Positions 1,967 to 58,077 of a stretch of 64,000 bases of DNA are shown here, piece after piece. Positions within the stretch are counted from its first letter, which is position 1, and each line of letters begins with the position of its first letter. Under the pieces are notes generated by a model, which was not told where the DNA came from, made no database searches, and saw nothing but the letters and a program-made list of their open reading frames with translations. This stretch comes from Yuukianura sp. NJ FZ-2021 (Eukaryota). Position numbers and translations under genes: made by a program. The stretch is taken from positions 372,001 through 436,000 of the forward strand of contig CM102283.1 in NCBI GenBank assembly GCA_046563655.1. The letters are read 5' to 3'.

Positions 1967-2057
1967 AGGAGGAAAGTAACAAGTAACACATAAAACGTAG
2001 CTCCCGACAAATTGATTTTTAGCGGTGAAATAATCGTCCTACCTGCCAGTGTCATAC
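1967..2057 (+). repeat. About 91-bp dispersed repeat, inverted copy at 39358-39449
   Basis: aggaggaaagtaacaagtaacacataaaacgtagctcccgacaaattg...ccagtgtcatac matches the reverse complement of 39358-39449 with about 3 differences. Confidence 0.85.
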
Positions 2058-20500: not shown

Positions 20501-23500
20501 AATTCACAAAATAGAGTATCAGAACGTAAATTCCATTTCATACCGAGTACTGGAGTGGCAGTTGACGTGTAGGCATAACCACTGCCGGTTTCCAATCCGC
20601 ACCCATCGTCAGTAGACGAGCCGATTCTGGATCCCTCCACAGCAGTAAATGCCCACTGCCGAAGCTCCATTTTCGCTTCACTCATGATCTCCGTAGCTTC
20701 TTCTTTAAAAGTTTGCAATTCCTGAACGGAATCAACAGATGTGACACAGTTGTCCACATAAAGAGCCCGGAGTAGATGCTGAGCACTCTCACGACGATGA
20801 TCATTGATGGTTGAAATGTGGTACTGGATAACAGCTGCTAAAAGAAAGGGACTGGAATTAACACCAAACACTACTCTCTTATGTCGAAATACGACTTGAT
20901 TGGCTGCGTTCACACTGTCCCACCACAGGAAACGCAAATAGTCACGATCACTTTTCAGTACTTCGATCATCAAAAAAGCTTTTCTGATATCCGCGACGAC
21001 CCCAATCTGTCCAATTCGAAAACGTAAAAGTACTGCGGGTAGGAGCTCGAGCAGGTTGGGTCCTTTCTCTAAACAGTCGTTTAAAGATGGCGATCTACCA
21101 CTGCGACATGAAGCGTCAAACACTGGTCGAATGGGAGTTGTCAGACTCTCGGGCTTGATCACTGCTCGATGAGGTAAATAATATGATGAACTGTTCACTT
21201 CACACTCAGGGACAAGTTCGATCACACCTTCATTTAACCAAGACTTAAACACCTGATCATAAAGATGAAACATACCCTTGGAGTTTAACTTGGCAGTAGT
21301 GTTGATCAGTCGTTTTTCTGCGACATATCGATTGTCTGGAATCTTCTGGACCCCACTAATCCACGGAAGGGAGACGGAGTACCGCCCATCATCAGAGCGA
21401 GAAATTGTGGACAAAAATTGATCCATTGTCAACTTCTCCTTCTCCTCTTTTGAAGTGGCCGCAGCACGGTCTTGGATCCCCAGTACATCCAGTTCCCATA
21501 ATCTTGTAATGTCGCAGTTGGAAACATACATCGACGTGACCGTCATTGCAATCGCAGACTGAACATTGTTCGTAGCTCCGACAAGAGTCCACCCGAGCTT
21601 CGTCTCGATCGCAGAGAGTCCGTTTTCTAGTTGTTCAACGCGACCTGTTAACATAGAACCATAGCAATCAGCACCAATCAGTAAATCAATTTGTGGTGTT
21701 CCAGTCCCCAGGTCACTTATCCAGATCTTCTTTTCCTTGAGAGCATGGAGCCACGGACCGACTGAAAGACGTGGAATATTTCCACAAATGTTGTCGTGGT
21801 CCAGAACGCTCAGTTGATGACTGGATTTTCCTTTTGGATTTTCCAACTTCAGATCATAACTCCGGTGTATTCTATTTTCAGTGGAGCAACCAAACAAGAT
21901 ATGACGAAGTTGTATAGAACCCGTGGGCTTTAGTTCGAGGAGCTCAGCAGTCTTTTTTAAAATGTACGAACGCTGAGATCCACTGTCTATAATTGCCCTC
22001 AAACTAAAACACTTGTCACCATTGTTCACTTTAACAATCAGAGTTTGAAGTACCACTTCTTTAGAGCAGTCCAAACTTGAAAACGCTGATTGTGTAACAT
22101 TTGATGGTTTCTCATCCTTCTTCTTTGCGCCAACCTCGGGACACATGATGGATAAATGTTTCTTTTGACACAACAGGCACTTAACAAACTTACGACAAAC
22201 TTTTGTTGCATGACCAACTTTCAAACACTGTCCACAAGCTTTCTTTGCTAGGACACGAGCCTTACGTTCATCCAAGGTCAAAGTAGGAGCTTTAAAACAC
22301 TGTTGGCTGTCATGCGGCTTTTCACAAAACAAACACAAAAGACGTTGCTGCTGTTGACCTGAGAACAGTCCTGCAGCTGTCGGCGTTGCTTCCGTTGAAT
22401 CGGTTGGAGTACCCCTTCGCTCAAATTTTAGCGGCTTCTTTGAAGATGGAGTGATTCCAAAACCGGTCTTTGCTAGGCAACGCTGCTCCTCACCTTCTAC
22501 CTCCTGTCTTAGGAACGCCATTAAATATTGTAGCTCGTTCATTGGAGGATCTTCATTGGCACCGTCACGTCCATAATTGCTACTGCGCTGCCAGGCGGTG
22601 AGGATGTCCTCTGGTAGACTCGATTCTACCATTGGGTACAGAAATGTAGCGGTCTGGTCACTGCTGACTCCAAGAGTCTCTAAAGCACGAAGATGGGATT
22701 CTAATTTGTCGTAAATCTTGAGAGGAGTTACCTTGTCTCGTCCGCTGACTGAATTCTCGACTACCATCTTCAGCAGCTCCCGGACGTAAACTTGTTTTAG
22801 TAACTTCTTTCTCCCAAAGCGACGTTGTAGTTCCTCAACCGCTTTCTTGTAGTTGGCTGCACTTTGAGGATAACTGTTGATTACTTCTTGTGCTCTAGAT
22901 CCAGCCACAATCGATTGATACAAGTATTGGAACTTGTCACTGTCGTCGATTTCAGGATCTAAATGAACTTTTTCAAACTGAGCCCAAAATCCTAACCACT
23001 CACGCAAGTCCCCGTCGAATTTTTTAATTTCAATTTTGGGAAGCTTGTATTTTCGGTTGGCGGATTGAGCCGAACTTGTTGAACCAGGACTGGTTGGGAA
23101 AACCACATCACTTTTCTTGTTGACAAAGGTGTCAATTTTCTGTTTGATGGTAAGGTACCGTTCTTCGTAATCTTCTACGGTCTTACGTTCAGCCTCCATC
23201 GCTTCCTCCGATACGTCATCATCGTCCAGTTGAGAGTTCCGAACGTGGCAGTCAAGTTCTCGAACCTGACTCATCAGCGTAATCAATCTCTCCAACTTGA
23301 CCTGAAGAACATTCAAATCGGGCGTAGACGACTGGAGTAACTTCTCGAGGTCCGTCATTAAAATGGTCATTGACCGACGATGGATGCCTCGTTCCTTTTC
23401 GTGTCTTCCCATGTCGTAAATCACGAACAATCACAACACTCAAAGTACTGTGAATAAACACGATAAAAATGCCAGTTACAACTGGTCAAAGGGTCACCAA

Positions 23501-30901: not shown

Positions 30902-33900
30902 TGTTCTGGCGTTAGCGTCAGAATTATTTTCTCTTTAATTTCAACACTTCTCCTATAGATTTAAGTGTAGTATTAAGAAGTGGAAAGAGCAGGAGCTTAG
31001 TTATGCGCATTACTTGCTCCGCCTATTCCTCCACGTCAGCTCCACGTCTTCAACAATAGTACATAGCATAGAATACATACACAATTCAATCAGTCTTAGA
31101 ATTCTCTACCAATTCAATTCGATCTTTCAATTCAACTTTCAATTAATTGTTTTTCTTTTCATTTAAGTATTTAATTAAAAGTAATTGGTTTATTTGACAT
31201 TACTGGATTGATCTCAACATCGTTCACATCATTTCAAATCCATTCTCACTTGAATTCTGCACATCTTATGGCCGCGATCAACTACATGGTGCCGAAAGAC
31301 GGTTCGTTGGATCTTTGGTAACCGGTATCAGTAACCAACGAGCATTAATCAATTGACCTAACATTAAAGGTTGTAGGTGTGTTTAACTTTCGCCATTTGA
31401 GTGAGTAGTTTCAGTATGTCAGACAACAATACAGAAGGAATGGAGACTCGGTCTAAATCAAAACTTAGATCTCAAACAGAGGAGGATCCGGTGACACCAC
31501 CAGTGTCAACTGAAGTCAATCCACAAACTGCTCCAAGAATCCCCGTACCAGTCGTTACTAAGTCGAAAACTACCGAGTCTGCATCATCCTCCAAATCAAT
31601 CGCTATTCCAACGATAGATCCTGAAATGACCAGACTACGCATGATGCACAAGGGACTCGATATCAACATTCAATTCCTCTTCAACAAGGTCACTGAATAT
31701 GCAGATGACCCGAGTAAGGCCACAAAATCAGTCATCGCTTCCGACAGAAGAAAACTAACCAAACTGGAGTCGTCTCTCTCCGAGTTGAGTTCGTCTCTCT
31801 TCGCCTGCTGTCAGAACGATGCTCAAGTCATGGCTCAAGCTACTGCTGCTAACGTGAGCAACGAAATGATTGACCAAATCAATGATGTCTTGTATTCAAT
31901 TGAGTCACAAGCTGCCGCCTCTGCCACTGCTGGGTCAAGGGTCAAGCTACCAAAACTTGAACTACCCACATTTGATGGAAGGTATGAGAAGTGGCCAGCC
32001 TACCGTGATCTCATAACCACTTACATCGTTGAAAACAATCAACTCTCGGGATGTGAGAAGTTCGGCTACCTCAAACCTACTCTCAAGGGCGAGGCTGAAC
32101 TAATCATTCGCAACTTCAGCAGTACAAACAACAATTTTGAAGAAGCATGGAATTTGGTGAAATCCAGATATGAGAACAACCGGGAAATTGTGTTCTCAAT
32201 TCTCAAACAACTGCTGAGCACAAAACCAATCACCAATGAGAATTCCCAGAATCTCAGGAAACTAATTGACAATTTCAACGAGTGTTGCAGATCCTTATCA
32301 AATCTAAAGGAGCCTGTTAATTCGTGGGATTCGATTTTAGTTTTTCATCTAGTGGAACGTCTCCCTCCAGAATGCAAAAGGGACTGGGCAAAGTCTCTCA
32401 AGGGGACCAATGTACCAAAATTGGCAGAAGTCATGGAATTTTTGGAAGATTACGTTAGAGGTCTGCTTGCGTCTACCACCACAACAACCAAATCAAATTC
32501 AGAGGGTGGAAAACCAGCAGAGAAGAAGGCTAATGTGGCATCCAAGCCTACCGTATCGGAATCAAATCAATCGGTGTCATCATTGCCTACTGAATCTTCC
32601 AGACCAACTCAACCTCTGCGAAAATGCCCAATGTGCCAGTCCACAGATCATGGTCTCTACAAATGTGGGGATTATCTGAAATTGTCAACGGAGGAACGTT
32701 CAAAATTCGTGGGAAGTAAGTCATTGTGCATAAACTGTTTAAAATCAGGTCATTGGGGCAAGGACTGCAAAGGAAAGTTCCGGTGCCTAAAATGTAAAGG
32801 CCGTCATCACACCACGCTTCATTTTGAAAAATCAGATGACAACAAATCTACTGCTCCATCAACTTCATCTCAAGGGTCAACAACCAATTCACTTCAATCA
32901 TCGTCTGCTAGAGTCTTACTCTCTACGGCAGTGGTTGACGTCATGGACTCTGATGGTGAGTTGGTTCAATGTCGTGTTCTGCTTGATCAGGGCTCTGAAT
33001 CAAGTATGATCACAAATGATTGTGTCAAACGACTTGGTTTAATCAAAACTAAGTCCAACGTTTCAATTACTGGAGTGTCAGGTGCAAGTGTCGGTAAGGC
33101 ACTTGGTGAGGTAAATTTCATTGTCAATTCTCGGGTAACTAATTTTCATGTAAATGTCAATGCTCTAGTGCTTAACAAAATCACAGGTACAATTCCCTCA
33201 TTCAAATGTGAGAAAATGGAATGGAGTCACATCTCAAATCTGCGATTAGCTGACCCCCATTTTCTGGAGCCAGGAGACATTGACATTCTGATGGGTGCTG
33301 AGTTTGTCGCTTACCTTAAGACGGGGAAGAGATCAGAAGGACCGCTTACTCAACCAATTGCTGAGGAAACAAAATTCGGGTGGGTTGTATCTGGTCCAAT
33401 TAACTTTCCTTCTAGGTCTGTTTCATCTCATCACATCCAAATTGTGACCGAGGATCCAATTCCAAAGTTTTGGGAAATTGAGGATGTACCAAATCGTCCT
33501 CACCTCACCAAAGACGAAGATGACGCTGAAAAACACTTTGTTCAAACTCACACTAAAGGAGAAGATGGTAGACTCCAAGTAAGTTTTCCATTTAATCCCA
33601 AGATTGAAATTTTAGGTGGGTCTAGAACCATGGCATTACGGAGATTCTATAATCTCGAGAAGCGACTAAAGCAATTTCCGGATCTGAAACCCGAGTACCA
33701 TCGCTTCATGGAGCAATACGAAGAACTGGGTCACATGGAACCAATTCCAGACTCCGAGTGTGGTGAGAAAATTGGTAAAACTAACTACCTTCCTCATCAT
33801 TTTGTACTGAAGGAGACTTCCAGTACTACCAAACTTCGTGTTGTCTTCGATGGCTCAGCAAAGACAACAACCGGAATTACTTTCAACGAGTGTCAATTGG

Positions 33901-36900
33901 TAGGTCCAACGGTGCAAAAAGACATTTTTGCGCACTTAATCAATTTTAGGTCAGACCCGATCGCTCTTAAGGCGGACATTACAAAGATGTACCGTCAATT
34001 TGGAATTTCAAAATCTCATCAGGACTATCAAAGGATTTTCTGGAGAACGTCAGAGTCAGATCCAGTCAAAGAGTACCGTCTCAAAACGGTCACTTACGGC
34101 ACTAGTTCAGCGCCATTCCTTGCGGTAAGGTGTTTGAATGAAATTGCTAATTCCAATTCTCAGGCATTTCCAAAGGGGGCGGAGGTCCTTAGGGAAAGAT
34201 TCTACGTTGATGATCTCCTTGGAAATGCAAAGTCTACGGCCGAGGGAGTTCAAATCTACAATGAGCTCTCCAAGTTATTGGAATCATCCAATATTGAAAT
34301 CCGGCAGTGGGACTCAAACGACTCTGAACTACTCAACTTCATTCCAGAAACTCTACGTGGTAAAAATCCTAGTGTAAAATCAGATTCTAATCATGTCCGA
34401 GCTTTAGGTGTTTGTTGGAATTCAACCGATGACGTCTTTCATTTCTCTGGATACACACCAGTAGCCGAAGAAAAAGCTACTAAACGCTCTGTACTTTCGT
34501 CCATGAGCCGTGTCTTCGACCCACTCGGTATGTTATCTCCGTTCACTGTGTCAATTAAACTCTACTTCCAGAAACTTTGGACACCAGTTGAAACCGATGG
34601 AAAGAGTCACATCCTAACGTGGGACCAAGAGATACCTCGAGCCTTACTTCAACCATGGATCGACTTTGAACAAGGGGTAAAACTAATTGAGAATGTTAGA
34701 ATCCCCAGGTTCCTGTTTTTAGGCACTGCTGAGTTCGTGGAGCTCCACGGATTCTCGGATGGATCCGAATCTGCTTACTGTGCAGTTGTCTACGCCCGCT
34801 CGATTCGTGGAAACGAAATCTACACTAACATCATCGCTGCCAAGACGAAGGTAGCTCCAATCAAACAAATCTCAATTCCTCGTCTGGAACTCTGTGGAGC
34901 CCTTCTCCTGACACGACTGATGACTCAAGTCACTGAAGCTCTGAAACTCCAATGTCCCATCACTTGCTGGAGCGACAGTGAAATTGTACTACATTGGCTA
35001 CGAAACCGGTCTCGTAAGTTCAAAACATTCGTCGCCAATCGAATTTCAGAAATCCAGGACGTACTCCCTGCCGAGTCATGGAGATTTATTCCTGGTAAAA
35101 TCAACCCTGCTGATCTTGGGACACGAGGAATCCCAGCAGAGGAACTAATCAACTCAAATCTCTGGTTCAAAGGACCGTCATTTCTATGTGAGTCTGTAAA
35201 ATTACCTAATTTTGAGTCGGGGGAAGTAAGTGAGCCTGACTTGGAATTAAAAGGTGAAAAAGTAATGGTCAATTTGGGTTTAATCAATTCATCCATGTTT
35301 GAAAGGTTTTCTAATGTCATTCGGCTTAAACGAGCCATGGCGTATGTCTTACGATTTATTAGCAACTGTAGGAATTCAAAAACTGGAAATCGTTCAACTG
35401 GACCACTTTCAGCTACTGAAATCCACCATGGATTCATAATCTCCATCCGGGAGGCTCAACGAGAGTGTTACGGCAAAGAGATCAAGAAACTGAAAGTCGG
35501 AAAAGAATTGTCTAATCGTAGTCAATTATCCTATCTCAGCCCATTTTTGGACAAGGACGGTATCCTAAGAGTCGGTGGAAGACTCAAAAACTCACAAGAA
35601 CCAGAGGAGAAGAAACATCAGATGATTCTGTTTGGAAATCATCCATTGACCAAACTCATCATTTGGAATTACCACATCAAACTGCATCACGCCAGTTATC
35701 AACTACTGTGGAGTAGCCTAAGACAGCAATTTTGGATCATTCGAGCCCGTGTCACTGTTCGTCAGCAGCTCCATCAGTGCATAATGTGCAAAAGGCTCCG
35801 TGCCAAAACTTACAATCAGCTGATGGGAAATCTACCAAAACCACGAGTAACCCCATCACCACCATTTAGTCACACTGGCCTTGACTTTGGAGGACCAATG
35901 AAAGCATCAGAAACCAAGGGTAGAGGTAAAAAACAATTTGATGTGTACTTTTGTGTTTTCATTTGTTTTAGTACCAAAGCGGTTCACATTGAACCGGTAA
36001 CAGGCCTCGACACTGAGACTTTCATTGGCACTTTGAAGCGGTTCGTAGCACGACGAGGATTACCGACTGCAATCTACTCTGACTGTGGAAGTAACTTCGT
36101 CGGAGCCAAAAACGAAATGTCTGAATGGGTTAGTCTATTGGAAAAGTCTAATGATGAAATTAGCGATTTTTTAGGCAACCAAGGGATAGAGTGGAAGCTG
36201 AACCCACCAAACGCTCCACACATGGGTGGACTCTGGGAAGCTTGTGTCAAATCTACCAAGTTTCATCTTAAACGTACCGTGGGAACTCAATGTCTGACAC
36301 TGGAAGAGTTCTACACCATCCTAGCCATGATCGAATCAGTTCTCAACTCCAGACCACTCTATGCCATGTCAGATGATCCGGATGATTTTCAAGTACTCAC
36401 TCCTGGTCATTTCCTAATCGGTCGTCCTCTCACTGCCATACCGGAACCAAGTCTACTCCACCTCAAGGAGAATCGTTTGTCTCGGTGGCAGCATGTCCAG
36501 TTCATCTTGGAACACTTTTGGAAGAAATGGAGTATTGAGTACGTTCATACTCTTCAAGAACGGAGGAAGTGGGATTCACCTACTGAAAATGTCAAAATCG
36601 GAGAATTAGTGCTGCTGAAAGATGACAATCATCCACCACTCAAATGGAAGATGGCCAGAGTCACTGCAGTCTTCCCAGGAAACGATGATCTTGTCCGCAC
36701 TGTTGAAGTGAAGTACACTACATTCGATGAGAAGACCAAGAAGCCAAAACTACATACATTCAAACGACCAATTGTCAAAATCTGTCCACTTCTATCTCCA
36801 GATCCGTAACTGCAATAATTTTATTCATTTTAGTGTATTCTTAATTTTAACTTTTCAATTTACCACTTAAAGTAGCGTAATTGTAGAGTTTTAGATTAAT

Positions 36901-43864: not shown

Positions 43865-44669
43865 CTGCAAAAAAAAACACAATACAAAATCACTCAATTA
43901 CGTTACAAAAAAAGAAACATGTTTTTGAAATTCTATTGTTTTATTTCACTTTTTGTTAGCCATTGACCCCAAAAGCAAAGACAAAAAACCTATCGTATGG
44001 TCTGCTCGTTTGACGTTGCCATTTTCCTGTTTTAGAACAAGGAGAGGGAAATGATAGCTCCATCCAATAACATGAGAAAATCCTTAGTAGGTCTAAATCC
44101 CAAAAGAGACAGAAGAAGCAGAGGGAAAATAGAAGATTTAAACTTATATGAGTCCGGCGCCTGTGAAAACTGATGCGCGAAACTTTGACCTCACAGAAAA
44201 CACGAGTTCTCTGATTCGAGTTGACGCATTGACTTCTGAAATAAGGGCCCGCTTCCCCACTTTGGCCCTTATCTAGGTTTAGTGAGGCTGGGTATGTTAT
44301 TTGACGAATTGGCTATTAAATAATTTTCAGTTCTTTTCGTCAATGTCAATTGAAAAAAGTTTCAAAGCAGTTGCAACAGCTTTAATGAGGGTACGAAACT
44401 ATTTGAGTAATTTCCAAAGTTTTATGTGAATACAATGAAAAAATACTCTGCACTTTCGCTACTTTGCTAAATACGAAGTTTTTATGGGAAAAAAGTTACT
44501 TGCACCATCGATACTTTGTTAAGGCCATTTCTAATTCCATTTTTGACATCGAAATCTGCAGACATTTTTGATTCCGAGTTTTGGCGAAATTTATTTACTT
44601 TTCTCGTCTCCAAGGGAAAAAAAATTCAAAATCCGAGGTACGCCATTCTTCGTTGGGACTACACAATTA

Positions 44670-44958
44670 TCTACTTACCTTGCACTATGCTCACGAGTTA
44701 TTTAGTGAACTAAAAAACTTGTGAACAACTCGACTACTGAAATCAGAAAATGTTCACTAATTATTTAGTGAACCACCATTGTGTTTACCAGTTTCTACTT
44801 ACCTTACACTATGCTCACGAGTTATTTAGTGAACTAAAATGTGTGGACAACTTGATTACGAAATTACAAAATGTGCACTACTTATTTAGTGAACTACTAA
44901 TGTGTCCACAAGTTATCTAGTTACCTTACACTATGTTCACTGATTATTTAGTGAACAA
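44670..44958. repeat. Tandem repeat, about 125-bp unit made of two about 62-bp subunits, about 2.3 copies
   Basis: ttatttagtgaac recurs about every 62 bp; ctacttacctt(g/a)cactatg about every 125 bp. Confidence 0.8.
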
Positions 44959-44969
44959 AAATGGGTGAA

Positions 44970-46148
44970 TGTTGGAGTTCTAAGCGAACTCCTTTTTGAA
45001 ATTCGGTGGAAAAAAGAATCGGGCGAAAACAACAAGATGAGATTTTTTGGGGCTTTCGCCCTTTTATTATAAAAGAAAAAAACTGAGAAAATGTTGGGGA
45101 CAATTTGGTGTTTCGATTGGTGTGAGAATCAGACTCTGATGACTACTTGTTTGCAAGAGAGCAGAAAACTGACTGAGGTTGGTGGGGCAGGAGAGTCTTG
45201 ACATGGGCTGCTGAGTGACCTTGGTCACTCGTGAGTCCATGAACACAAAATGCCTCACCTTGTGACATGGACCATGTCACAAGGCATGGCACTAAGACAG
45301 GCTTTGGAGCCTGTAAGACTCAGGAGGAAGGAAATGGAATTTTAATTTAATTAACTGGAGGGGTTGACCAAGGTCGAGCGGTTGTTGGCTTGACCTTGTC
45401 AATTCCTCCAACACTCCCGGCCCTTGGTGGATTGAAGATCCACCAAGAATTTTTTGAAAACTAATGTGGAAATGGAAAATGAATTTTGAAATGGAATAAA
45501 GATTGAAATTGGAAATGGAAATGGAGTGTTGGAGAAAAGGCCAACCAGTGGAAAGGAAAATTGTAATTTTGTGAATTTGTAAATAATTAATTAGGTAAAT
45601 TTAAAGTAAATTTAGAGTTACGTTACTCGAATGGGAAAATGAAAAGAAAACTTAAAGTTATGGTGACGTGTTGGAGGTTGAGCTTAGGCGTCTTCGGTTG
45701 CTTCGGAGTCGGAGTGACCTTGACCTTGGCTGTTGGATTGGAATTGGTGGAGAGTGTCGTGGTGAGGTTGATTGCAGTGTCTGCAGAAGACCTTGTAGAA
45801 GCATTCTGCAGTGGTGTGTCCGTGGCGGAGGCACAAATTGCACAATTTGCATTTGTGCACAAATGACCATTTCTCATTAAGAGAAAGATTTTGAAATTGT
45901 GGACAGTGGAAGAGGCGGTGTTCTCCAGAACACTTTGGACATTTGGTTGGTGGTTTGCCTTTGGTGGCATGGTGAGTCGTTGAACTCTTCGGTGCTCCCG
46001 AATTGGCGGTGACCTTGGGTGGCTCTGAAAGAGCACTGGCACGGTGTTCCAGGAAGTCCAGGAATGCGGAGAGAGTTGGGAGGTCGTCATCGTTCTCGGA
46101 GAGAAGTGATGAGGGCTGTAAGCCACTACTGCCTGCCGCAAATCTCAA
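44970..46148 (-). mobile_element. Truncated BEL-type element: Gag-like zinc-knuckle ORF fragment (45684-46148) and 3' LTR (44970-45413)
   Basis: LPTLSAFLDFLEHRA followed by CPKC...H, CNLCL..GH...C and CRHC...HHDTLH; LTR-like tgttggag...ctccaaca preceded on the minus strand by gggccgggag. Confidence 0.75.
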
Positions 46149-46176
46149 GTTGCCCCAGGTATTTATGACTGGATGG

Positions 46177-46306
46177 CAAAAAATGCAGAATGCTTTTTTG
46201 CCATCGTGTCAAAAAACGCAGAATGCTTTTTTGCCATCGTGTCAAAAAATGCAGAATGCTTTTTTGTCGTCGTGTCAAAAAATGCAGAATGCTTTTTTGC
46301 CATCGA
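46177..46306. repeat. 39-bp tandem repeat, about 3.3 copies
   Basis: caaaaaatgcagaatgcttttttgccatcgtgt units. Confidence 0.85.
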
Positions 46307-46334
46307 AAAAATTAAGTCCATATTCCATTTAAAC

Positions 46335-46575
46335 TTAAAAAAAGTTAGGTTCCTACTCTATTTAAACTCCTCGCATAATCAAGCATTCTTCTCTCACGGA
46401 TGGCTCAACTTGTTGCTCTCTGCTCTTTAAGTCATTGTCTCATTCCACCTTCTGCAGAATGGTGGAAATGGAACAGTGACTCAAGGAGCAGAGAGCAACA
46501 AGTTGAGGCATCCGTGAGAGAAGAATGCTTGACTATACGAAGAGTTTAAATAGAGTAGGAACCTAACTTTTTTAA
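46335..46575. mobile_element. Palindromic MITE (about 240 bp) with TTAA at both ends
   Basis: Near-perfect palindrome centred on ctgcag (46452-46457): aagttaggttcctactctatttaaactc / gagtttaaatagagtaggaacctaactt. Confidence 0.8.
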
Positions 46576-46894
46576 TTTTTTTTTTATTACGGCTACTGGG
46601 AATCGACGCCAGGCTCCCTCGATTTGATGCCACCACATTATCGATTGCGCTAATCCACTCACCATTGTTTAATTCAAAGTAAATTCAATATATACTCTGA
46701 AATAATCAAAATGTTCATGTAAAACAGGGTTTGAAACAAAAACGTTTTTAACATTAGAAACTGTATATATCATAAAAGCTCGGCTTGAATTCCTTCCCGG
46801 TTATCGTATTGCAGACTAATAGTCATATTGATCATAGTTCGAAATTCAGCCTTCAGTGATCTTTCTTAAGCCAAACTGAAAACATCTATCTACA

Positions 46895-47383
46895 ATGCGG
46901 CAGAGGTACGTGTTTAATCACGAACACTACTACAATACTTTGAGGGACCAAATTGGCCACGGAATTCCTGTGTTTCATGGGGTACGACAGAGAGGAGGAG
47001 GCATTGGTTCCATCCTAGGAGGAATAGCAAAATACGCTTTGCCTATAATCATAAAGTGGATTATGCCCCATGCAAAGGAAGCAGCAGTAAAAACTGTGAG
47101 TGGGATTGCGAAAGGACGTCAGTCAGTAAAGCACGCTCTGAAGGAAAACAGCCTCGGATTTTTGAAAAACGTTGGTGCCGATCTTTTGAAATCAGCAGTT
47201 GGATCTCAAACAGGGAAAGGCGTGGGAGTTAAACGGAAGCGTACATATACGAAACGGAAGCCATCCAGGGGAAGAAACAAAGCGTCAAAAAAATCCAAGA
47301 AACCGAAGGCATCGAAAAAGAGAAAGGCTTCAACGAAGGCAACAAAGACTGCAAAGAGAACCAAATTGGATATATTTGCATAA
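46895..47383 (+). CDS. Polinton conserved basic protein (core/pVII-like)
   Basis: QRGGGIGSILGG motif, QTGKG, Lys/Arg-rich tail ending DIF; immediately upstream of the MCP. Confidence 0.75.
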   Translation: MRQRYVFNHEHYYNTLRDQIGHGIPVFHGVRQRGGGIGSILGGIAKYALPIIIKWIMPHAKEAAVKTVSGIAKGRQSVKHALKENSLGFLKNVGADLLKSAVGSQTGKGVGVKRKRTYTKRKPSRGRNKASKKSKKPKASKKRKASTKATKTAKRTKLDIFA

Positions 47384-48679
47384 TGTCGCTACTACAATCT
47401 CGATCTAAACCAGCCCTTCGTGGAGAAGTTGATCTGTTCTCAATCCCATCAACAGACACAGCTTGTGACTATAGTATGTACGAAAAGTATCAGCCAGTAG
47501 TAAACGTTCAGGACGCTTCAAACAAAATCGAATTCAAGATTCCAGGAAATAGTAACCATTATCTGGATTTGACTGACAGCTTCCTACGGATCAAGCTAAA
47601 AGTGACGCAGAAAGCCGGTGCGAACCTAGGTAATGATTCGACAGTTGGTACCGTGAACTTATTTATGCACACGCTCTTCTCACAACTGGACATTTACTTC
47701 AATGAAAAACTAGTGTCCACAAGTAACAATGGCTACTCATATCGTGCTTAAATAGAAACATTACTTTGTTATGGAAAAGACTACAAAAGTTCTCAAGGTG
47801 GGTGTGCTTTGTACTACGAAGATACAGTTGGAGGAATTGCGGACTCGACAAACACTGGATGGGAAAAGCGAAGAAGCTACATCAGCGAATCCAAAGCGGT
47901 GGAACTGATCGACAAATGGAGATTTAACCTAGCAAATCAACATCGCTACATATTGAATGACGTGAATGTTCGTATTTGTCTGACGAGATCTTCCGATGCA
48001 TTTGCCCTTTTCTCCAAAGCGAAGGGGGAGGAAGGCGTAATCAAATTCTTATCTGCAACGTACTACATCAGAAAACAACTGCCATTTCCAAGCATTATCT
48101 TGGCTCATCAGAGACTTTTAGAAAAAGGTGAAATTGCACAGTACCCTTTCAAATCCACCGAAGTAAAATACTTTACCATTGCTCAAGGAAATTCATCTGC
48201 CCTCGAAGAAAACCTTTTTTCAAATAACTGTCCCAATCGGATTATAATAGGATTTGTAGATAGCCTGGCTTTCAACGGAGATTTCAATTCCAATCCGTTT
48301 CGCCCATTACAACATTAAGTCCATTTCGATTTCAGTCAACAATGTGTCTATCCCTATACGACCGTTATCCTTAGACTTTCACAACAACGAATGTCTTTTG
48401 GCATACTATCTTTTATTTACGAGCACTGGAATTGCTGGGCACGACGTTGGACTCTCCTTCGCACGTGACGATTACAAAGAAAGCAACGCGCTGTTTACAT
48501 TTGACATTCTTCAGCCCACAGGGAACGACGCATTGCTTCATTTGGAGAAATCTGGAAGTGTGAAAATTGAAGTCCAGTTTGCCTCAGCATTAGACAAATC
48601 AATACATTGTGTCATACTTTCGGAACAACAAGGTGTCTTGGAGATTGACAAATACCGACAAGCAGTCATCGCACAATGA
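47383..48679 (+). pseudogene. Polinton major capsid protein (double jelly-roll, PY/hexon-like)
   Basis: EVDLFSIP, IEFKIPG...YLDL, NLFMHTLFSQ, YRA*IETLL (stop 47749-47751), PNRIIIGFV...AFNG...NPF, frameshift at about 48300, LEIDKYR. Confidence 0.9.
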
Positions 48680-49236
48680 ATACCACCGAAATCTTGGAAA
48701 TTCTGAATAATAATCTCAAGGAATCATATCAAACTGCAGTTCTACCATCTGACAAGTTAGGGGTTATTAAATCTGATCAGTTTGCTATTGTTGTAAATTC
48801 GCAAAGTTCAAAGGAACCAGGAATGCATTGGATCAGTATGTTTAAAAAGCGTGGAGGCAAGGAGGTAGAGTTTTTCGACAGCTGCGCAATGCCGATAGAG
48901 TTTTACAGCCCCAGCTTTGTCAGTTTCCTTTACTCAAAATCTGACGTCATTCGATTGAGTAATCTCAGAGTACAACCGGGGCATAGTGATGCGTGCGGAC
49001 AGTTTGCACTATATTACTTGTTACACAGAGTCAGGGGAGAATCGTTTGAAAAGATTCTGAGCAAGTTTGACGAATTTCATCTAGATATAAACGACACTAT
49101 TGTTAGAGATTTCGTATCAATGAATTTGCAACACGATAGTGAGACAAGTTTGAGAGTGGTTAGTCAAAACTTAGAAGCAGGCAAAATTATTCAGTGTTGC
49201 GAAATTTTAGGAGTTCTACTCAGCATGTCAATCTAA
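48676..49236 (+). CDS. Adenain-like cysteine protease
   Basis: IVVN...PGMHW, EFFDS, Q...ACGQFALYYL: His/Asp/Cys triad and oxyanion Gln. Confidence 0.9.
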   Translation: MNTTEILEILNNNLKESYQTAVLPSDKLGVIKSDQFAIVVNSQSSKEPGMHWISMFKKRGGKEVEFFDSCAMPIEFYSPSFVSFLYSKSDVIRLSNLRVQPGHSDACGQFALYYLLHRVRGESFEKILSKFDEFHLDINDTIVRDFVSMNLQHDSETSLRVVSQNLEAGKIIQCCEILGVLLSMSI

Positions 49237-49307
49237 GTTTGTTGTAGACGTAATTCATTTAACCCAATTATATTCTTTGTAAGGCTTTCTTATTGTATTA
49301 AAGAAAA

Positions 49308-50237
49308 ATGAAATCGGACATCCAAGTGTCATACAAGCGAATTGGAAGCTCTGGTTATTTGGGCGGCAAGAAGCATTTGAGTAAGTTAAACGGCATTTCG
49401 GAATCTTCCGCATTGAAGTTCTTACAAAGTCAAGATTCTTACACACGTCATAAAGGCCGAAGGTGCAAATTTCGTAGAAGGCGAGTAATATCTCCTGGCT
49501 TAAACTATCTTTGGCAGGCTGATATTGTTTTCTTGCCAAAGTACACTGATGAAAACGATGGCTACTCTTGTCTTCTAACAGCAATTGATGTCCTGTCAAA
49601 GTATGCATTTGCTGTGCCCATGAAATCAAAGAAAACTAGCGAAGTTATCCAAGCATTTAAAAGTATCATCTCTTCGGGGAAGGGGCGGCCCGTAACGCTA
49701 GAATGTGATCAAGGTTTAGAATTTTGGTCAGCTGCATTCCAGTAGTGGGCAAAGTCTCTTGGTATATTGATGTACAATAACTTTTCAGACTTTGGCTCAT
49801 CCGTTATTGAAAGGTTTAACAGAACAATATGCACGGCTATTTCAAGACATCTTACTGAAAGTGGTCAAGCGAGATACATTGAAGCCCTGCCTTCTCTATT
49901 GAAGACGTATAACAGCAAAATACATTCGCGAACGAAAGTGGCGCCATGCAACGTTAACAAATACAATGAAATGGACGTCTGGTTGGAATCTTATAAGGAC
50001 TTGTATTCAAAACCTATATCAAAAGCAAGTCTTAAACTATACGATCGCGTTCGCCTTGATAAAACGAAACACATATTCGGCAAGGGTTATTGGCCTGCTT
50101 TTACGAGCGAAATTTTTGAAGTCTCTGAAGTCATCAATTCCATTCCCGTGACGTACCGTGTTAGGGATCTTTCCGGTGAGCAAATTTCTGGGATCTATTA
50201 CAGTCAAGACCTCAGCAAGATAAGTTCAAAAGAGTGA
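49308..50237 (+). pseudogene. Polinton retroviral-type integrase with one premature stop (49743-49745)
   Basis: WQADI, LLTAIDVLSKYA, CDQGLEF, IERFNRT, FGKGY..FTSEIF, PVTY..DLSGE.I.G.YY. Confidence 0.9.
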
Positions 50238-50238
50238 A

Positions 50239-50983
50239 ATGGGATTCTATATTACATTACCGTCGAACGGCTCACGTTATTTTTCTGACAATCGAACAAG
50301 TAACTACAGGATTAAACTTCCGTCAAAAATCAAACTTGAGCCTTCCTTATATGAGGTCGGGCTAACTGAGTTGACTTATGTGTGCTCCATAAAAACTCTA
50401 ACCGGAGCTGAGAAAGACAATCTCATTGAGTATAATGGGGCGAAGACTGCCGGGAAAGTAGAGCTTCCTTTACTTCATTACAGTACCGTGGAGCATTTAG
50501 TTCACACGGTCAACGCATCTTTTGTAAAGCACAGCGTCCCTTCCAACTTGAAGTACTACGAAACAAGGTGCTGTGATCCTGGAAGTAGAAGCCGGATTTA
50601 GTATCGAAATAAGTGAGAAACTTTCCTACATTTTGGGATTTAACGGTACGCTTGAATTTAATTCAAATCAGCAAAATACCTACTTCATAGCCGATTTTCC
50701 ACCGGATATACTCGGAGGGCGATATCACATGTTTCTATACTGTGACATAATAGAGTCTCAAGTCGTTGGATCTTCCCTTGTCCCTCTGCTTCGTATGGTA
50801 AACATAATTGGAAACGAAGGACAAGCAGTCACTCAAACTTTCGCTCATCCGTTTTATCTTCCGATTTCAAGAACCGAGTTTGACATCATCTCTATTGTAC
50901 TGTGCGACGAGTTTGGGGAGGAGTTACCAATTGACAAAGGTCAAGTGACTTTAACTCTACATTTTAAGAAGATATCAACCTAA
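50239..50983 (+). pseudogene. Polinton minor capsid protein (penton-like, PX), frameshifted at about 50570
   Basis: FYITLPSN..F..N, YEVGLTEL, FLYCDIIESQVVGSSLVPLLR, I.L.DEFGE, VTLTLHFK. Confidence 0.88.
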
Positions 50984-51717
50984 TGGAAAACAATACGTAC
51001 GATTTCGATCAAATTCAACTCAAACATCCATTCACATTTATTGTTGCGGGTGGCACCATGTCTGGAAAAACAACATTTGTTTGCAAGATAATTCAAAACC
51101 TCGACATGATGGTGTCACCTAGAATCGATGACGTAATTATTTTCTATAAGGTATATCAAAGCGGCTATGACGTCATGAAGTCAATGGACGCTAGAGTTAG
51201 ATGTATAGAGGAACTAAAGTTGGACGAAGTCTACGCCAAAAATACATTGCTAGTGATCGATGACCAAATGGCAGATTCATTAAAAGACAAGTCTGTCCAA
51301 GAACTTTTCACTTGCGGCGTGCATCATAGGTACGGCAAAAATCAGTTTGGAAATGTAAATCTGGAACGATGAATTTGCATAGAATTGACAAAACGTTTTT
51401 TTTTAAATTTCAGGTCAATATCCGTCATCTTCCTTTCGCAAAATTTGCTGCCGCAAGGAAAATATGCAAGAGATATTTGTCTCAATACACATTACATGAC
51501 GATTTGCAAGACCCCCTCATTTCCTTCACAAGTGATGTACCTCAGTAGACAACTCAATCCAAGGAAGCCAAGTGCAATTTTAACCGCTTACGAGGAGGCA
51601 ACACGACAGCCGTATTCATACTTGTTTCTAAATTTGCACCCTAGTTGCCACGATAATTTACGAATACAGTCCGGAATTCTTCCAAAAGAAGAGCATATTA
51701 TTTACTTACCAAGTTAA
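50983..51717 (+). CDS. Packaging ATPase (FtsK/A32-like), two exons 50983-51329 and 51414-51717
   Basis: HPFTFIVAGGTMSGKTT (Walker A), LLVIDDQM (Walker B), GVHHR|SISVIFLSQN restored by an 84-nt GT-AG intron, PYSYLFL. Confidence 0.9.
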
Positions 51718-51731
51718 GTGTTTCCTTTACA

Positions 51732-52079
51732 ATGACAAACCGCTTAGTTTGAAACAATACGTTCCTCGAAAAGGTTAAAAAGTGTAAAGCTGTGCGCCGA
51801 AAAAAGTTAATAAAAAAGGCGTCAAAAGACAACATTGAAGCATTGTCCGAAATTGCTCTAAACACGTTAATAGGTAATGTGCCATTAACTAAACAACACA
51901 AACATAAACTCAAACGGCACAGGAGTTGTATTCGAAATCTTGCCAAAAAGTTCTCCATTAAAAAAAAGAAGGAGTTCTTAATACAGAAAGGTGGATTTAT
52001 TCCATTGTTGGTGACACCAGCATTGTCTATACTTGGCGGCCTTGCTGCGAACGCATTAAGTCATCTTGTAGGTTTATAA
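51732..52079 (+). pseudogene. Polinton small basic protein with hydrophobic C-terminus (early stop at codon 7)
   Basis: EIALNTLIGNVPLT...KL, QKGGFIPLL followed by an amphipathic tail. Confidence 0.7.
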
Positions 52080-52917
52080 TGTCCAAAAAAATGAAATTGA
52101 TACCACATCTGGAGTACGAAAAACTTGTTGCAATTCAACGAGCTCCTCAGCTTTTACATAAATCTACATCAGTTCAACTATTCGACAGGAATACTATTGA
52201 ACAAGATTCTTGTTCAATAGTATGGTGAAGGGACTCCACACAAACTTTTCGGCTCTAATGAACACTCCACTTCAGGTTGAAATTTCTAAACCAGCAACAC
52301 TCCCTCCGACACCCAAAAGTTCAAGATCGGACCCTGCAAAAACTGTTAACCGAGATGCGGAAACCGCCGTAGACTAGGCTTTATTCAACACTCACCCAGC
52401 TAAGTTCCTACCAAAAAAGTATCAGATGCCCGGCTTGAAAATAATGCAGGTTCTTTCTACATCTGCATTTAATGACATATCCTGGGATGAGTCAGGACAA
52501 GTGTTCTTTAAGGGTGTAGCCAGAAGTGGGGCCAATATTATTGAATTACTGACATATGTTTTGAAGCCTCCGGCAAAGGTCACTCCACCAAAAGGAATTC
52601 GAACATTTATTTATATTTTGAAGAAAGTTCATATACCAAAGGAATTGCTTGGAATTCATATACGAAGCAAACTAAATTTGACTACGATAGCACTTCTTGC
52701 ACAAAATACTCCAATGGTTGGACAACCTTTGGAAGAAGCCGACGAAGAGGAAGAGGATGAGGAGGTGGAAGAAGAGGAGGAGGCTGAACAGGAGGAGGAT
52801 GGGGTGGAAGATGATGATAACGAGGAAGAGGATCCTCCACGAGACGACGGGGATGCATCAGGTGATGATTATCAAGCGCCAGTGGCCAAGTCATCTGCTG
52901 CTTGGAGCTTCTACTAA
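52079..52917 (+). pseudogene. Polinton conserved protein of unknown function with acidic tail, disrupted
   Basis: MSKKMKLIP start; ISWDESGQVFFKG...GANIIELL...PKG...F...L...IPKELLG motif; Glu/Asp tract; stops and frameshift in the 5' half. Confidence 0.65.
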
Positions 52918-52948
52918 TCAGTCTTTTGTTTTAGCTTCGAGGCAAACA

Positions 52949-53641
52949 ATGTCGGAAAGTGAACCAGTCGTTAGAGTAGAAGTGGTTAACATGCCTCTTG
53001 TGGTGTCGACAAACGAAGGACCTGATTTCGAAGAGTTCGTAACCCTTGAAAGCAGACTATCCAGCTTCAATTCATCTGTAATACATTGCTTTCCTCCGGT
53101 CGAGAATCTAGCCACGGCTGGCTTCTTCTACACAGAGTTTAGGACGCCGTAATATGTTTTTATTGTGGACTATGTTTAAGTTGTTGGAGTGAGCACGACT
53201 CACCATGGTTAGAACATCGTATTCATTCTCCAAACTGTGCGTATCTAATCCTACAGCACCCAATCACAAATGTAATCAATAAACTATTACTGAAGTAAAT
53301 ATTTATTCACAACTACATAATTTTTTGGAAATTTATTTTTTAGACTTCGTCAACAACAGATCTCTGTGACATGACCCCGGGTGATAGCATCGAAACAGGT
53401 TCAAAATACAAATAAAATTGATGTGAGTTAAATGAATCCACTGTTCTAAAGTACGTTTTTATGCATAGAATTGAACAAGCTGAAGTCCATTATGCAGTGC
53501 AAGATTTGCATGACACGTCAGGCCTCCTATATGTACGCTCCGTGCTGTCACATGGCAACATGCCTGGAATGCTGTACCACCCAATCAAAATGTCCTATAT
53601 GTCGTTATGCAATAAGTCTGATCATTAAAGTTTTCATTTAA
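52949..53641 (+). pseudogene. iap: Inhibitor of apoptosis (one BIR plus RING), three exons 52949-53271, 53344-53398 and 53469-53641, one frameshift at about 53140
   Basis: RLSSF...LATAGFFY / DAVICFYC...W...DSPWLEHRIHSPNC (BIR, CX2CX16HX6C); CKIC...PCCHMATCLEC...CPICR...KVFI* (IAP-type RING). Both introns are GT-AG and frame-preserving. Confidence 0.85.
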
Positions 53642-53721
53642 AATTAGGACAATAGCTATGAAAGTAACAAGAAATGACAGCATATGCTTTGTATCAAATC
53701 AACAACAAATAGATAATAGAT

Positions 53722-54560
53722 TTATTGTTTATCTAATAAGTAATGACCGTATGGTAGAGTGGAAATTCCGTCGTCAAAAATATAACGTTTAGAATCAAAC
53801 GCATGCAGTGCGGCTTTAGTTGTTTCGATATTATAAATCTTGTGTTTGTAGGAGCGCATTGAGTTTGTTGTACATGATAAAATTTGCTGTTTTAATAAAA
53901 CCTGCTCCAACATTGCAAACGATATTGACCTTTGCTGTATTCTCTGTGGTATTCCTTTCATGGCACATTTCTTAAAAGACGCTGCATCGTAGTCTTCACC
54001 TACGAAACAGTAGGACTTCGGAGCAACTCCAACAAACTTTGTAAGTATCCGGCCTTTAACCTCGTCTTTCATTTTCCCCGTGACTCCAGCGTTTACTGTT
54101 GAATAATGCGGATGGGATGTGGGCAAGTTGCTTGTATCAAACAGCTCCAAGTCTGCTTCAATGTCTTTGTATATGTCGGAGGTACGAATCACATATGCAA
54201 GGCTGTCAGTGTCGGTCATCAGTAGTTTTGCATTTGAACCCCATTTTGACTTAACATAGTCATAATGGAAACGGGCCATATGTAGTTTGCTTAATTCCAG
54301 AACGGAGAACCCGGTGTAAATAGCTTTGTTAAGAGTTACGCAGGACTTCTGCATTCTGAAGCATGCTAAGTTTTTGCTCAAGATGTCGTGAGACAAAAAT
54401 TGAGATTTTCATATGAGTCTGGCAGCGGTTTTACGGTCGTTCACGACTCTGACGTTCATTCGTTTCCTCACAGATTCCATGCCCTTCCCAAACACTGCAT
54501 TTACGCATAGCTTGTAGAACATCTTCTGAAACTCATTTGATGCATTTCGTCTATGTTATT
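53722..54560 (-). pseudogene. Protein-primed family B DNA polymerase, C-terminal fragment
   Basis: FYKLCVNAVFGKGMESVRKR (motif B), stop at about 54410, IYTGFSVLELSK, TDTDS (motif C), GKMKDE, KSY, DSKRY...TLPYGHY. Confidence 0.92.
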
Positions 54561-55592
54561 TCGATATATTTCGTTATCAAAAAATATTGACTGCCAATTG
54601 CATTTGTAGAACAATTTTAAACATTGTTTTCTAATTTTTAAAAACGTTTTTAATAGGAACCTGTCAGCTGCACTCCCTCTCGAGGATTTTGATAAGCAAG
54701 AAAAATTCGAAGAAAAAGGTTGCTGAATCATGAAGCACAAATACTTCCTTCCTATTTTTATATTTGACATTATTTCGTATTTTATTTTAGTCTTTTAAGA
54801 ATTGAAAATTGATTTGAGTTGTTTTTTTAAATTAGTTTTTATAATTTTTATTAGAATGTTAAGAAATTTTATATATTTTAAATTGAATTTTACAATAAAT
54901 AGTAATAAGCGTAATGTACAGGGATCAGACATATTTAGTTCCCATGCCCGTAATGTTAACAAAAAAAATATTTGCGGGGTTTTCGTTGCTAAATTTTTAT
55001 TTATTTTCCCACGGCGGGCGACTTTTTAAAAATATAGTTTTTCGTCAATACTTCGAGGGGTTTTAGCACATATTTTTGACAACGCTGGTAATGTAATAAA
55101 TGTTTAAGGCATAACTCAAAAAACTGAAAGTATATTTTTGGAGTGATTTAGAATGTAGATTGGGCGTGGTTGTTTTTGTTTGTTGCAGTTGCCAAGATTG
55201 GTTCAGTTTGGAAGCAAAGGTAGCCAGCGGCTGAATTGCAGAATGCAGACCCCCTTGACCTTTGTGCCATGGGGCAGGGCCTATCACGGCCACGCTCCAA
55301 CTAAGGAAGTACTTTCCAGCATGACTTGTGCTGACAGGATTCACACTGCGTCCAATTGATTGTGATTTGCATGCGCAGAATGGAATTGGATCTGAGATTG
55401 GATTCATTCACTATCAATCGATGTGTCAGGTGGAAGCCATTCACCTTCTGCTTTACTTGGACATACTTTATGTCTCCTTCCAAAACTGCATCTACAGCAT
55501 AAAAAACCCTGCATTTCACAGGAACATACTGGACTCGGAACAAACTTCGGCAGAACAATGCACCTCAACCAACAACAGGATCATAGTTAACA

Positions 55593-55629
55593 TTATTAAA
55601 TAGCGAAAGCTATTTAATAATCTTATTCA

Positions 55630-55660
<31 letters not shown>

Positions 55661-56612
55661 GAGCCTCAATAACTCAGAAACTACTGGACCAATTTCATCC
55701 GGGTTTTCATCGATTGATATGTCATGGTGTATACCTGTTCAATTTTATCATATCATCCGGATAGGTGACCTTTTACCGGGTCAAAGGTCAAGGTCATTGA
55801 CCTTTTGAATATAAAACCGGGAAAATGACCCTAACAAAACCATGGGTCTCTGACTCCTCCAAGGGGGTCAAAACCGGGATCAAAGGTCAACATATTAACA
55901 TGCAGTGTAAATGGGCAAAGCTGGCCTGCTACCTTGCCCATTCACATTAAAGGCAGGTATCCTTGGGGGGGGGAAGTGGGGACAACCTCCCCCACTCCCC
56001 AGGGGGGGAGGGCGGAAAAGTGGGAGGAACCTCCCCCTACTCCCCCGGGAGGGCGGAAAGTGGGGGGGAGCCTCCCCCACTCCCCCGGGTGGGGGGGGGG
56101 GCGAAAAGTGGGGGGAACCTCCCCCTACTCCCCCGGGGGGGCGGAAAGTGGGGGGGAGCCTCCCCCACTCCCCCGGGTGGGGGGGGCGGAAAGTGGGGGG
56201 AACCTCCCCCTACTCCCCCGGGGGGGGGGCGGAAAGTGGGGGGAAACCCCCCCACTCCCCCGGGGGGGCGGCGGAAAAGTGGGGGGAACCCACCCCCGTG
56301 CTCCCTGGGGTGCGGAGCGAAAAAGTGCGGGTACACCCCCATTCCTTCCGGAGGAACGGGAAAATAGCGGAACACACCCCGCGCTCCCTGGGGTGCGGAG
56401 CGAAAAGGTGGGGGAACACCCCCACTTCCCCGGGGGGGGGCCTAAAAGTGGGGGAACCCACCCCAACTGTGTGGAAAATGGTGGGGAATCTAGAGGAAAC
56501 GAGGAAGAATACGGGGAAAAGAGTGAGTACCCACCCCCTACATGCCCCACCTGGGGGAAAACCATCTATTGGCTTGAGCTATTTCGTTATGCGCGGTTTA
56601 CAACCGGTTTAT
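55593..56612 (+). mobile_element. Helentron-associated non-autonomous element (HINE/DINE-1-like)
   Basis: 5' hairpin ttattaaatagc-gaaa-gctatttaataa, (GTCT)7 microsatellite, aactactggacc core, 3' subterminal gctattt, short hairpin cggtt-tac-aaccg, then a T-rich flank. Confidence 0.75.
55965..56560. repeat. GC-rich minisatellite, about 38-41-bp unit, with G-runs and C-runs
   Basis: Repeats of ggcggaaagtggggggaacctccccctactccccgggggg, degenerating towards the 3' end. Confidence 0.9.
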
Positions 56613-56892
56613 TTTTTATTCTTGACGTTATTGCTTGGACGCTGAAAATTTTTTTGAGGTTTCATGATGAAACATTCCGCATGTAACGTCAGCAACCATG
56701 ATGTCCAAAACGTCGAACATAACAATAATATGTCCATAATTTTTCATAACAATAACGACGCAGTCCACGCAAGTCGATAATGACCACAAAAGCATAAGAA
56801 ATAACGTCCATGACGTCCACACGTATAACGTCCGCAATGTTAAAAATTTTGGCATGAGGAAGGCTAAAGTTGGCAATTTGTGAAATAGGATT

Positions 56893-57298
56893 CAGTGATG
56901 TACTGTCTTCCGGAAGATTCTTCCATGGAAGACGTCTTCCGGCTTCATTCTTCCGACTTCCGGAAGATTTGAAGACGGAAGACTGGAAGACGAAAAATTC
57001 TCTGGAAGACGGAAGCCGGAAGACTGGAAGACTAAAAATTCTCTGGAAGACGGAAGCCGGAAGACCGGAAGACGAAAGATTCTCTGGAAGACGGAAGCCG
57101 GAAGACCGGAAGACTGAAAATTCTTTGGAAGACGGAAGACGGAAGATCGGAAGACGAAAAATTCTCTGGAAGACGGAAGATGGAAGATCGGAAGACGAAC
57201 CAATCTCTGGAAGACGGAAGACGGAAGACTGGAAGACGAATCAGCTGTTTCTCTTCGGAAGACGTGAAGACTGGAAGACGGAAGACAGTACGAGACTG
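56893..57298. mobile_element. hAT-type MITE filled with GGAAGAC heptamer repeats
   Basis: TIR cagt(gat/ctc)gtactgtcttcc, 8-bp TSD ataggatt (56885-56892 and 57299-57306). Confidence 0.88.
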
Positions 57299-57990
57299 AT
57301 AGGATTTTGGTTTTACGAAGAATGAATCTGTGTAATTAGTTTTTTCCTTGCTTTGTACAAAAATTAACCAAGAGTTGATTACACATCTTAACACTGAGCA
57401 ACCATCCTGACATGACGCTTCCAAATCATTGTTCCCCAATTCCATGTACTTCGACAAAATAAATTTTACAATCATTTCATTTTACTCATTTTTCAATTCC
57501 AGTTTTCAATCATTTCATTTTCCAATTTAACTTTTCCATCATTTTAAATTTCTGACTCACATTTTGTAACATTGGATTCAACATATGCAACAGCAGATGG
57601 ACCGTGTCAAGTTTCAGTTATTTTCCTTTTGCTTTTTATATTTTTCATTCCATTGGAGTTTTCATAAACATCCGCCTGAAATACACATTTATGATGTGCG
57701 AATGCGCAGAGCATACGGAAGGTTTTTGGGAGTCTAAACGGAAACGATTTTGCAAACTGTGAAAAAAGCTTATTTTTGCAATTTGGGTTGACTTATTTTA
57801 GAGCCGCGTTCTCCTGTTAGACTATTTTTTGTCTCTATTTTTGTAAACTGGAGTCTAAAAATGTTAAGCAGTTCCAGTTCGCATGATCCACTTGATGAGT
57901 GTGATGATGCAATATGTATGTCAGTGCCACATGACCTTTGACCTAAGTGGTCATAACTCCTGCACATTTTTAATTCCGTTGTCCCATCCA

Positions 57991-58077
57991 TCTAATTTAC
58001 ATAAATTGCGATCTTAAAATTGTCAGTGTCTGTGCAAGACACTGACAATTTTAAGATCGCAATTTATGTAAATTAGA
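57991..58077. repeat. Perfect inverted repeat, 41-bp arms and 5-nt loop
   Basis: tctaatttacataaattgcgatcttaaaattgtcagtgtct-gtgca-agacactgacaattttaagatcgcaatttatgtaaattaga. Confidence 0.92.

Follow-up and report, generated by a model that had tools for sequence, protein, structure and literature searches.

A pseudogenised three-exon inhibitor-of-apoptosis gene, probably a conserved accessory gene of one Polinton/Maverick lineage

Between the acidic-tail gene and the convergent polymerase gene (pPolB) of a decayed Polinton/Maverick element in Yuukianura sp. NJ FZ-2021 lies a compact stretch, here called iap, that would encode a BIR and an inhibitor-of-apoptosis (IAP)-type RING if two short introns were removed and one broken frame were mended. 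The locus raises the question of whether such a gene is cargo of the element or a late arrival in one copy, whether its exons are joined in working copies, and what its product would do there. The window, by which we mean the whole stretch of DNA analysed, comprises 64,000 nucleotides (GenBank assembly GCA_046563655.1, contig CM102283.1, positions 372,001 to 436,000, forward strand), and positions below refer to it unless a related locus is named.

The iap gene and the element around it

Read from the sequence, iap in the window consists of three exons with a total of ~183 codons, and a first-pass annotation that had described a BIR and RING gene with GT-AG introns of 72 and 70 nt and a frameshift at about 53140 matches the sequence base for base; its placement of the gene, with the acidic-tail gene before it and the convergent pPolB after it, is likewise what is seen in the window (Table 1). 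The ATG at 52949 opens a frame (frame A) that extends through 53140 and is closed by a stop at 53150-53152, and the frame that carries the rest of the BIR starts at 53143 with a stop directly upstream at 53140-53142; the two stops together thus place the break at 53141-53142. Because exon 1 ends on a whole codon and exon 3 requires one upstream base, the RING comes into frame only by way of exon 2.

Both of the domains that had been named from the letters are matched by Pfam, the BIR in two pieces: 52949-53140 matches BIR profile positions 1-32 with 13 bits, which alone is below the cut-off, and 53143-53271 matches positions 35-69 with 46.6 bits (E 5e-12, cut-off 22.9). Alignment with intact relatives identifies the two pieces as halves of one domain, which abut with exactly one column missing. 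The third exon matches zf-C3HC4_3 at 53471-53638 (40.6 bits, E 2.3e-10, cut-off 27). The BIR zinc ligands, spaced CX2CX16HX6C, and all eight C3HC4 ligands of the RING are readable in the translation. With its frame broken within the BIR and its host element decayed, the window copy of iap is a pseudogene.

Table 1. Positions of the genes, exons, introns and motifs discussed, in the window and in two related metagenome loci (L001 and L002)
Feature	Position	Strand	Remarks
Peptidase_C5-like ORF	48649-49236	+	weakly resembles adenovirus protease (14.5 bits; cut-off of 21.3 not reached)
rve integrase gene	49302-50237	+	rve 46.3 bits; in-frame stop at 49743-49745
packaging ATPase gene	50983-51717	+	two exons; Pox_A32 23.5 bits, cut-off 22.8
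ATPase intron	51330-51413		84 nt, GT..AG
small gene (118 codons in L002)	51753-52079		basic middle, hydrophobic Gly/Ala/Leu-rich C-terminus; counterpart at L002 779-1135, 76% identity
acidic-tail gene	52079-52917	+	frameshift near 52220 and in-frame stop at 52376-52378
pyrimidine-rich AG motif	52924-52934	+	15 nt ahead of the iap ATG
iap, whole	52949-53641	+	stop codon at 53639-53641
iap exon 1	52949-53271	+	35-residue leader and single BIR; frame broken at 53141-53142
iap intron 1	53272-53343	+	72 nt, GT (53272-53273)..AG (53342-53343), in-frame stops inside
iap exon 2	53344-53398	+	55 nt (18 codons + 1), open, acidic Ser/Thr-rich linker
iap intron 2	53399-53468	+	70 nt, GT (53399-53400)..AG (53467-53468)
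iap exon 3	53469-53641	+	C3HC4 IAP-type RING to the C-terminus
pPolB C-terminal fragment	53722-54408	-	DTDS motif, convergent with iap; remainder of gene absent
L001 iap exon 1	545-865		
L001 iap intron 1			73 nt
L001 iap exon 2			55 nt
L001 iap intron 2			71 nt
L001 iap exon 3	from 1065		
L002 ATPase intron	412-474		63 nt, GT..AG
L002 iap exon 1	2030-2347		
L002 iap intron 1			55 nt
L002 iap exon 2			58 nt
L002 iap intron 2			61 nt
L002 iap exon 3	from 2522		

The element that bears iap is a Polinton/Maverick (adintovirus-like), carrying pPolB, an rve integrase and an A32-type ATPase. Its rightward block of open reading frames (ORFs) begins at ~46.9 kb in the window, with iap at the 3' end of the block. 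The homologue of the polymerase fragment in L001 has 162 longer relatives at E<=1e-10, of ~1150-1300 residues, many of them with PF03175. In the window this gene is cut off near 54552, where the two aligned contigs that reach so far (records 6 and 18) also stop. The ORFs at the position expected for capsid genes contain one stop and one frameshift, and neither those at 47233-48679 and 50224-50983, in which the double and single jelly-roll capsid genes were sought by Pfam, nor the 118-codon gene gave a Pfam match. No inverted-repeat pair brackets the element within 44000-58000, which, since this copy has lost its polymerase end, bears on the copy and not on the family. The gaps between iap and its neighbours are small (28-45 nt upstream and 25-80 nt downstream), so its promoter would lie inside the upstream gene, or iap would be read from a longer rightward transcript.

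Several repeats flank the element. Just to its left, 46331-46444 and 46467-46580 form a 114-nt inverted repeat (89% complementary, 22-nt spacer), which may be a hairpin-forming small element. A few hundred bases past the point where pPolB is cut off begins a very high-copy repeat (54876-55192), with a summed contig depth of 12671 in sequencing run X1 as against ~500-1600 in nearby bins and with dozens of contigs that have loose ends at 54925-54931 and 55038-55087. Further on, 55835-56686 is a Pro/Gly-rich tandem repetitive stretch, open in several frames on both strands, and probably represents low-complexity repeat sequence, not a gene. The wider neighbourhood is rich in other mobile elements. 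Two retrotransposon polyproteins are encoded by ORFs without interruption, of 1783 and 1802 codons (18079-23430, - strand, and 31401-36809, + strand). Each contains a Pao peptidase (154 and 157 bits), DUF1759 and DUF5641, and the two may be Pao/BEL-type elements that were active recently. Remains of other mobile elements are an ORF with a MULE transposase domain (6770-7411, + strand, 28.3 bits) and one with an RNase H domain (486-1721, - strand, 48.7 bits).

Relatives, divergence and the proposed role

Scanning JGI metagenome contigs with an alignment of short single-BIR ORFs yielded three loci. The first (L001) contains the end of the acidic-tail gene, iap, and a convergent pPolB that lies 25 nt beyond the iap stop; the second (L002) contains the ATPase gene, the 118-codon gene, an acidic-tail gene with its 288 codons unbroken, and iap as far as the beginning of the RING. 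The gene order is common to the window and these two elements, and the BIR exons are intact in both, with 71.2 bits (BIR) and 41.6 bits (RING) for the exons of L001 and 69.3 bits (BIR) for exon 1 of L002. The third locus (L003, 1045-1188) holds just the second half of a BIR followed by GT, with no alignable first half in the sequence upstream, and may be a truncated copy or one with an extra intron. A scan of IMG/VR gave 44 pattern matches, none of which (0/44) was confirmed.

Amino-acid identity between the window and these relatives is 69% for the pPolB fragment (L001), 69% and 89% for the ATPase exons, and 48-49% for the acidic-tail gene (L001 and L002). Within iap it is 40% for the leader and first BIR half (L001), 68% for the BIR core and 64% for the RING exon (L001). 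Divergence of iap has accompanied that of the element, under constraint and at a somewhat higher rate than in the core genes. Substitution rates (calculated with an in-house Nei-Gojobori script) between the two metagenome loci give, for exon 1, pS 0.656, pN 0.173 and dN/dS 0.13 over 106 codons, with synonymous sites near saturation, and, for the shared part of exon 3, dN/dS 0.05 over 31 codons. Compared with its relatives, the window copy shows saturated synonymous sites (pS >0.75), and the pN values for exons 1 and 3 are 0.22-0.33. On the evidence of these comparisons, iap is shown to have been under purifying selection in the lineage.

The likeness of the RING exon to IAP RINGs is well beyond chance. 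Searched against the PDB, its best 10 of 26 matches are all IAP RINGs (cIAP1, cIAP2, XIAP and ML-IAP), and the RING of cIAP1 (PDB 6hpr) aligns with 46 bits, to the second-last residue and with identical ligand spacing. For the BIR of L001, the best single-domain solved relatives are DIAP1 BIR2 (PDB 1jd4, 56.2 bits), NAIP BIR2, ML-IAP and XIAP BIR2. The 43-residue BIR piece of the window had no match in a word-based protein search and 1968 matches at E<=0.001 in a full HMMER search, where proteins with several BIRs ranked top by summed score. Among the matches listed, the highest identities (71%, 62% and 58%) belonged to three short single-BIR ORFs on ENA contigs, and a sea-cucumber XIAP-like protein shared 55%. 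In its domain arrangement iap resembles ML-IAP/Livin (BIRC7), which also has one BIR followed by a C-terminal IAP-type RING (53 bits for the BIR, 36 bits for the RING). That protein is a cellular vertebrate protein of ~300 residues, whereas the element protein would have ~183 residues with a linker of 18-19 residues. DIAP1 and cIAP1 differ in that their matching domains are parts of larger proteins with two or three BIRs.

We consider it probable (roughly 0.8) that the pseudogenised three-exon iap of the window represents a conserved accessory gene of one Polinton/Maverick lineage, spliced and anti-apoptotic in working copies. In such copies the gene would be transcribed into a nuclear pre-mRNA from which the host spliceosome would remove the two short introns. 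By homology, the BIR would bind a caspase or a death activator bearing an IAP-binding motif (IBM), and a RING dimer would recruit a host E2 and ubiquitylate the protein held by the BIR, with the result that the cell would stay alive during replication of the element. Both the anti-apoptotic function and an infectious phase of the lineage, which the first-pass annotation had also proposed, are what we infer.

The domains found would also serve in a BIR-guided E3 ligase with another purpose, that is, a real gene of the lineage whose product alters innate immune signalling or marks a restriction factor or a protein of the element for degradation. Cellular BIR and RING proteins such as cIAP1/2 and DIAP2 act in NF-kB/IMD signalling. 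Within iap, identity between the window and L001 is no more than 40% over the leader and the first half of exon 1, and the acidic linker varies freely between copies. On the other hand, the closest solved single BIRs (DIAP1 BIR2, ML-IAP and XIAP BIR2) bind caspases or IBMs, and to our knowledge the viral IAPs studied so far are anti-apoptotic. We therefore give a non-apoptotic ligase a small but real chance, and prefer the anti-apoptotic reading.

Predicted exon joins and the intron pattern

A second alternative does without splicing altogether: the lineage would make a BIR-only protein of ~110-136 residues, and the RING would be a separate ORF or a relic. Its appeal is that every family entry in the protein collections (8/8, of 109-136 residues) is such an ORF; in the protein collection searched for a full-length annotated iap protein none was found, all six matches having 109-131 residues. 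However, these ORFs are automatic calls. All eight continue beyond the BIR with a Val codon where the exon ends in the alignment and then run into unrelated tails of differing length, which stop within ~30 codons, and tails of this kind are as would be expected of a gene caller working from exon 1 alone. The RING, moreover, is conserved, both between the window and L001 and, in its shared part, between the two metagenome loci, and in neither L001 nor L002 does the RING exon have an in-frame upstream ATG, so that it would be translatable there only after splicing.

The intron pattern argues in the same direction. The GT of the exon 1 donor occupies the same alignment column in all four sequences of the DNA alignment, and every iap intron boundary in the window, L001 and L002 is GT..AG (3/3), although in the window the donor of intron 2 is weaker than those of the two relatives. 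Exon 2 is open and 3n+1 long in all three, even though its peptides, acidic and Ser/Thr-rich, are poorly conserved (22-40% amino-acid identity) and the introns vary between 55 and 73 nt, with lengths that in L001 and L002 are not divisible by three. The preservation of the splice dinucleotides and of the phase of exon 2 while intron lengths change counts against a BIR-only product, which we regard as very unlikely. Among the contigs described below, a diverged copy shows the same partition: it is 83% identical over 52209-52713, then aligns only at 53141-53275 and again from 53465 on, blocks that correspond to the BIR core and the RING exon and that end within 4 nt of the predicted exon ends. 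Taken together, the three-exon structure of iap is well supported by comparison, with the exon joins themselves predicted.

The ATPase gene has an intron as well. In the window and in L002 it interrupts the same codon with GT..AG boundaries (Table 1), and joining the exons restores conserved ATPase sequence across the gap. What looks like a premature stop of the window ATPase gene in an ORF list is thus part of this conserved intron and no lesion, and the lineage has introns in a core gene as well as in the accessory one. The proposal that iap is expressed via the host spliceosome is supported by comparison between copies, through the conserved intron positions. A further acceptor that had been noted ahead of the iap ATG (ending at 52934) fared less well: the motif is present, and no other ORF start within 46400-53700 is preceded by such a motif, but neither of the two relatives that reach this position (L001 and L002) conserves it, and we rejected splicing of a leader onto the iap ATG through this acceptor.

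Cargo of the lineage, earlier work and meaning

The behaviour of iap across copies was followed in contigs of four DNA runs (three from one sample of one organism and one from a second organism, in two studies), aligned to 46000-55500 at 80% likeness. The runs gave 542, 366, 517 and 166 aligned contigs in all identity classes, and this spread of identities indicates a multi-copy family. A contig of 2060 nt covers 52252-54309 with 23 differences, links the end of the acidic-tail gene, iap and the end of the polymerase gene, and is unbroken at the place of the frameshift; in another, the RING exon (to 53595) is followed directly in the contig by the polymerase gene (from 53735). Where the window has its frameshift, contigs from all four runs are one letter different in length, so the copies they represent are unbroken at that point. 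In run X2 the unbroken state accounts for 58.4 of 132.7 depth units and the remainder agrees with the window, a split from which it follows that the break is probably a true feature of one copy and did not arise in assembly. The near-identical copies that are unbroken at this place could suggest that the family was active in the host not long ago.

The first-pass annotation had allowed that sister copies might lack the gene, and had proposed looking for an intact iap at the same place with conserved intron boundaries. The sisters do not lack it: L001 and L002 carry iap between the same neighbours, and both the place and the intron boundaries are kept. An origin of iap as a host-gene fragment that entered this single copy once it had integrated, or as a chimera of the assembly, might be suggested by the decayed and truncated state of the element copy and by the many other mobile elements of the region, but the same gene between the same neighbours in the two metagenome contigs, the near-identical and diverged contigs in four DNA runs of two studies, and gaps to the neighbours of just 25-80 nt leave this explanation almost no credence. 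The same neighbours, the intron positions, the intact BIR exons of L001 and L002, and purifying selection together support the view that iap is cargo of the element lineage and did not enter this copy after integration. This context is limited to three elements of one lineage, the polymerases of which are 69% identical, and iap may be confined to a sub-lineage.

The IAPs of baculoviruses, entomopoxviruses and iridoviruses are likewise virus-borne BIR and RING proteins directed against host cell death; their genes are not known to contain introns, and most have two BIRs. IAP cargo has also been described in adintoviruses (animal Polintons), so that the novelty implied when the gene was first noted does not hold. 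Adintovirus homologues of Bcl2 and IAP have been observed (Starrett et al. 2021, PMC8502044), and maps of leafhopper adintoviruses draw an IAP ORF (2026 preprint, bioRxiv 10.64898/2026.07.28.741253). As there described, the published adintovirus IAPs resemble the present gene in being accessory IAP-type genes that accompany pPolB, integrase, ATPase and capsid-type genes; by description, the present gene differs in having two conserved introns and in lying downstream of, and convergent with, pPolB.

The exon-intron structure is another matter. In the available portion of PMC8502044 the word intron is not used for adintovirus genes. Vertebrate Mavericks (Barreat and Katzourakis 2021, PMC8097293) share the core gene set and have accessory regions beside the core modules, and intact ones are reported to be without introns, in agreement with Kapitonov and Jurka 2006, in contrast to the conserved iap and ATPase introns of the present lineage. 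No spliced genes of animal Polintons were found in the available sections of PMC8905726, PMC8097293, PMC8502044 and 10.64898/2026.07.28.741253, nor in those of PMC3671162, PMC10748475 and PMC11071296, and none was described by the papers listed in a literature search for spliced Polinton, Maverick or adintovirus genes. IAP cargo in Polintons is thus already known, and the conserved exon-intron structure may be new.

A wider reading, which we hold tentatively and to which we give slightly less than an even chance, is that these copies belong to an animal Polinton/adintovirus lineage with conserved spliceosomal introns (one in the ATPase gene and two in iap) that depends on nuclear transcription and the host spliceosome, that iap was possibly captured as animal genomic DNA, introns included, and then kept by purifying selection, and that the family has been recently active. 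Because ORF-based annotation misses the gene, all eight family entries consisting of exon 1 only, IAP cargo in Polintons may be under-counted. The conserved introns of iap and of the ATPase gene, as far as comparison goes, point to nuclear expression through the host spliceosome. The place, structure and protein sequence of iap have been kept despite saturated synonymous sites, which shows that selection acted on it as the element's own gene while the lineage diverged, and such selection is in keeping with a virus-like existence for which it matters whether the host cell lives or dies.
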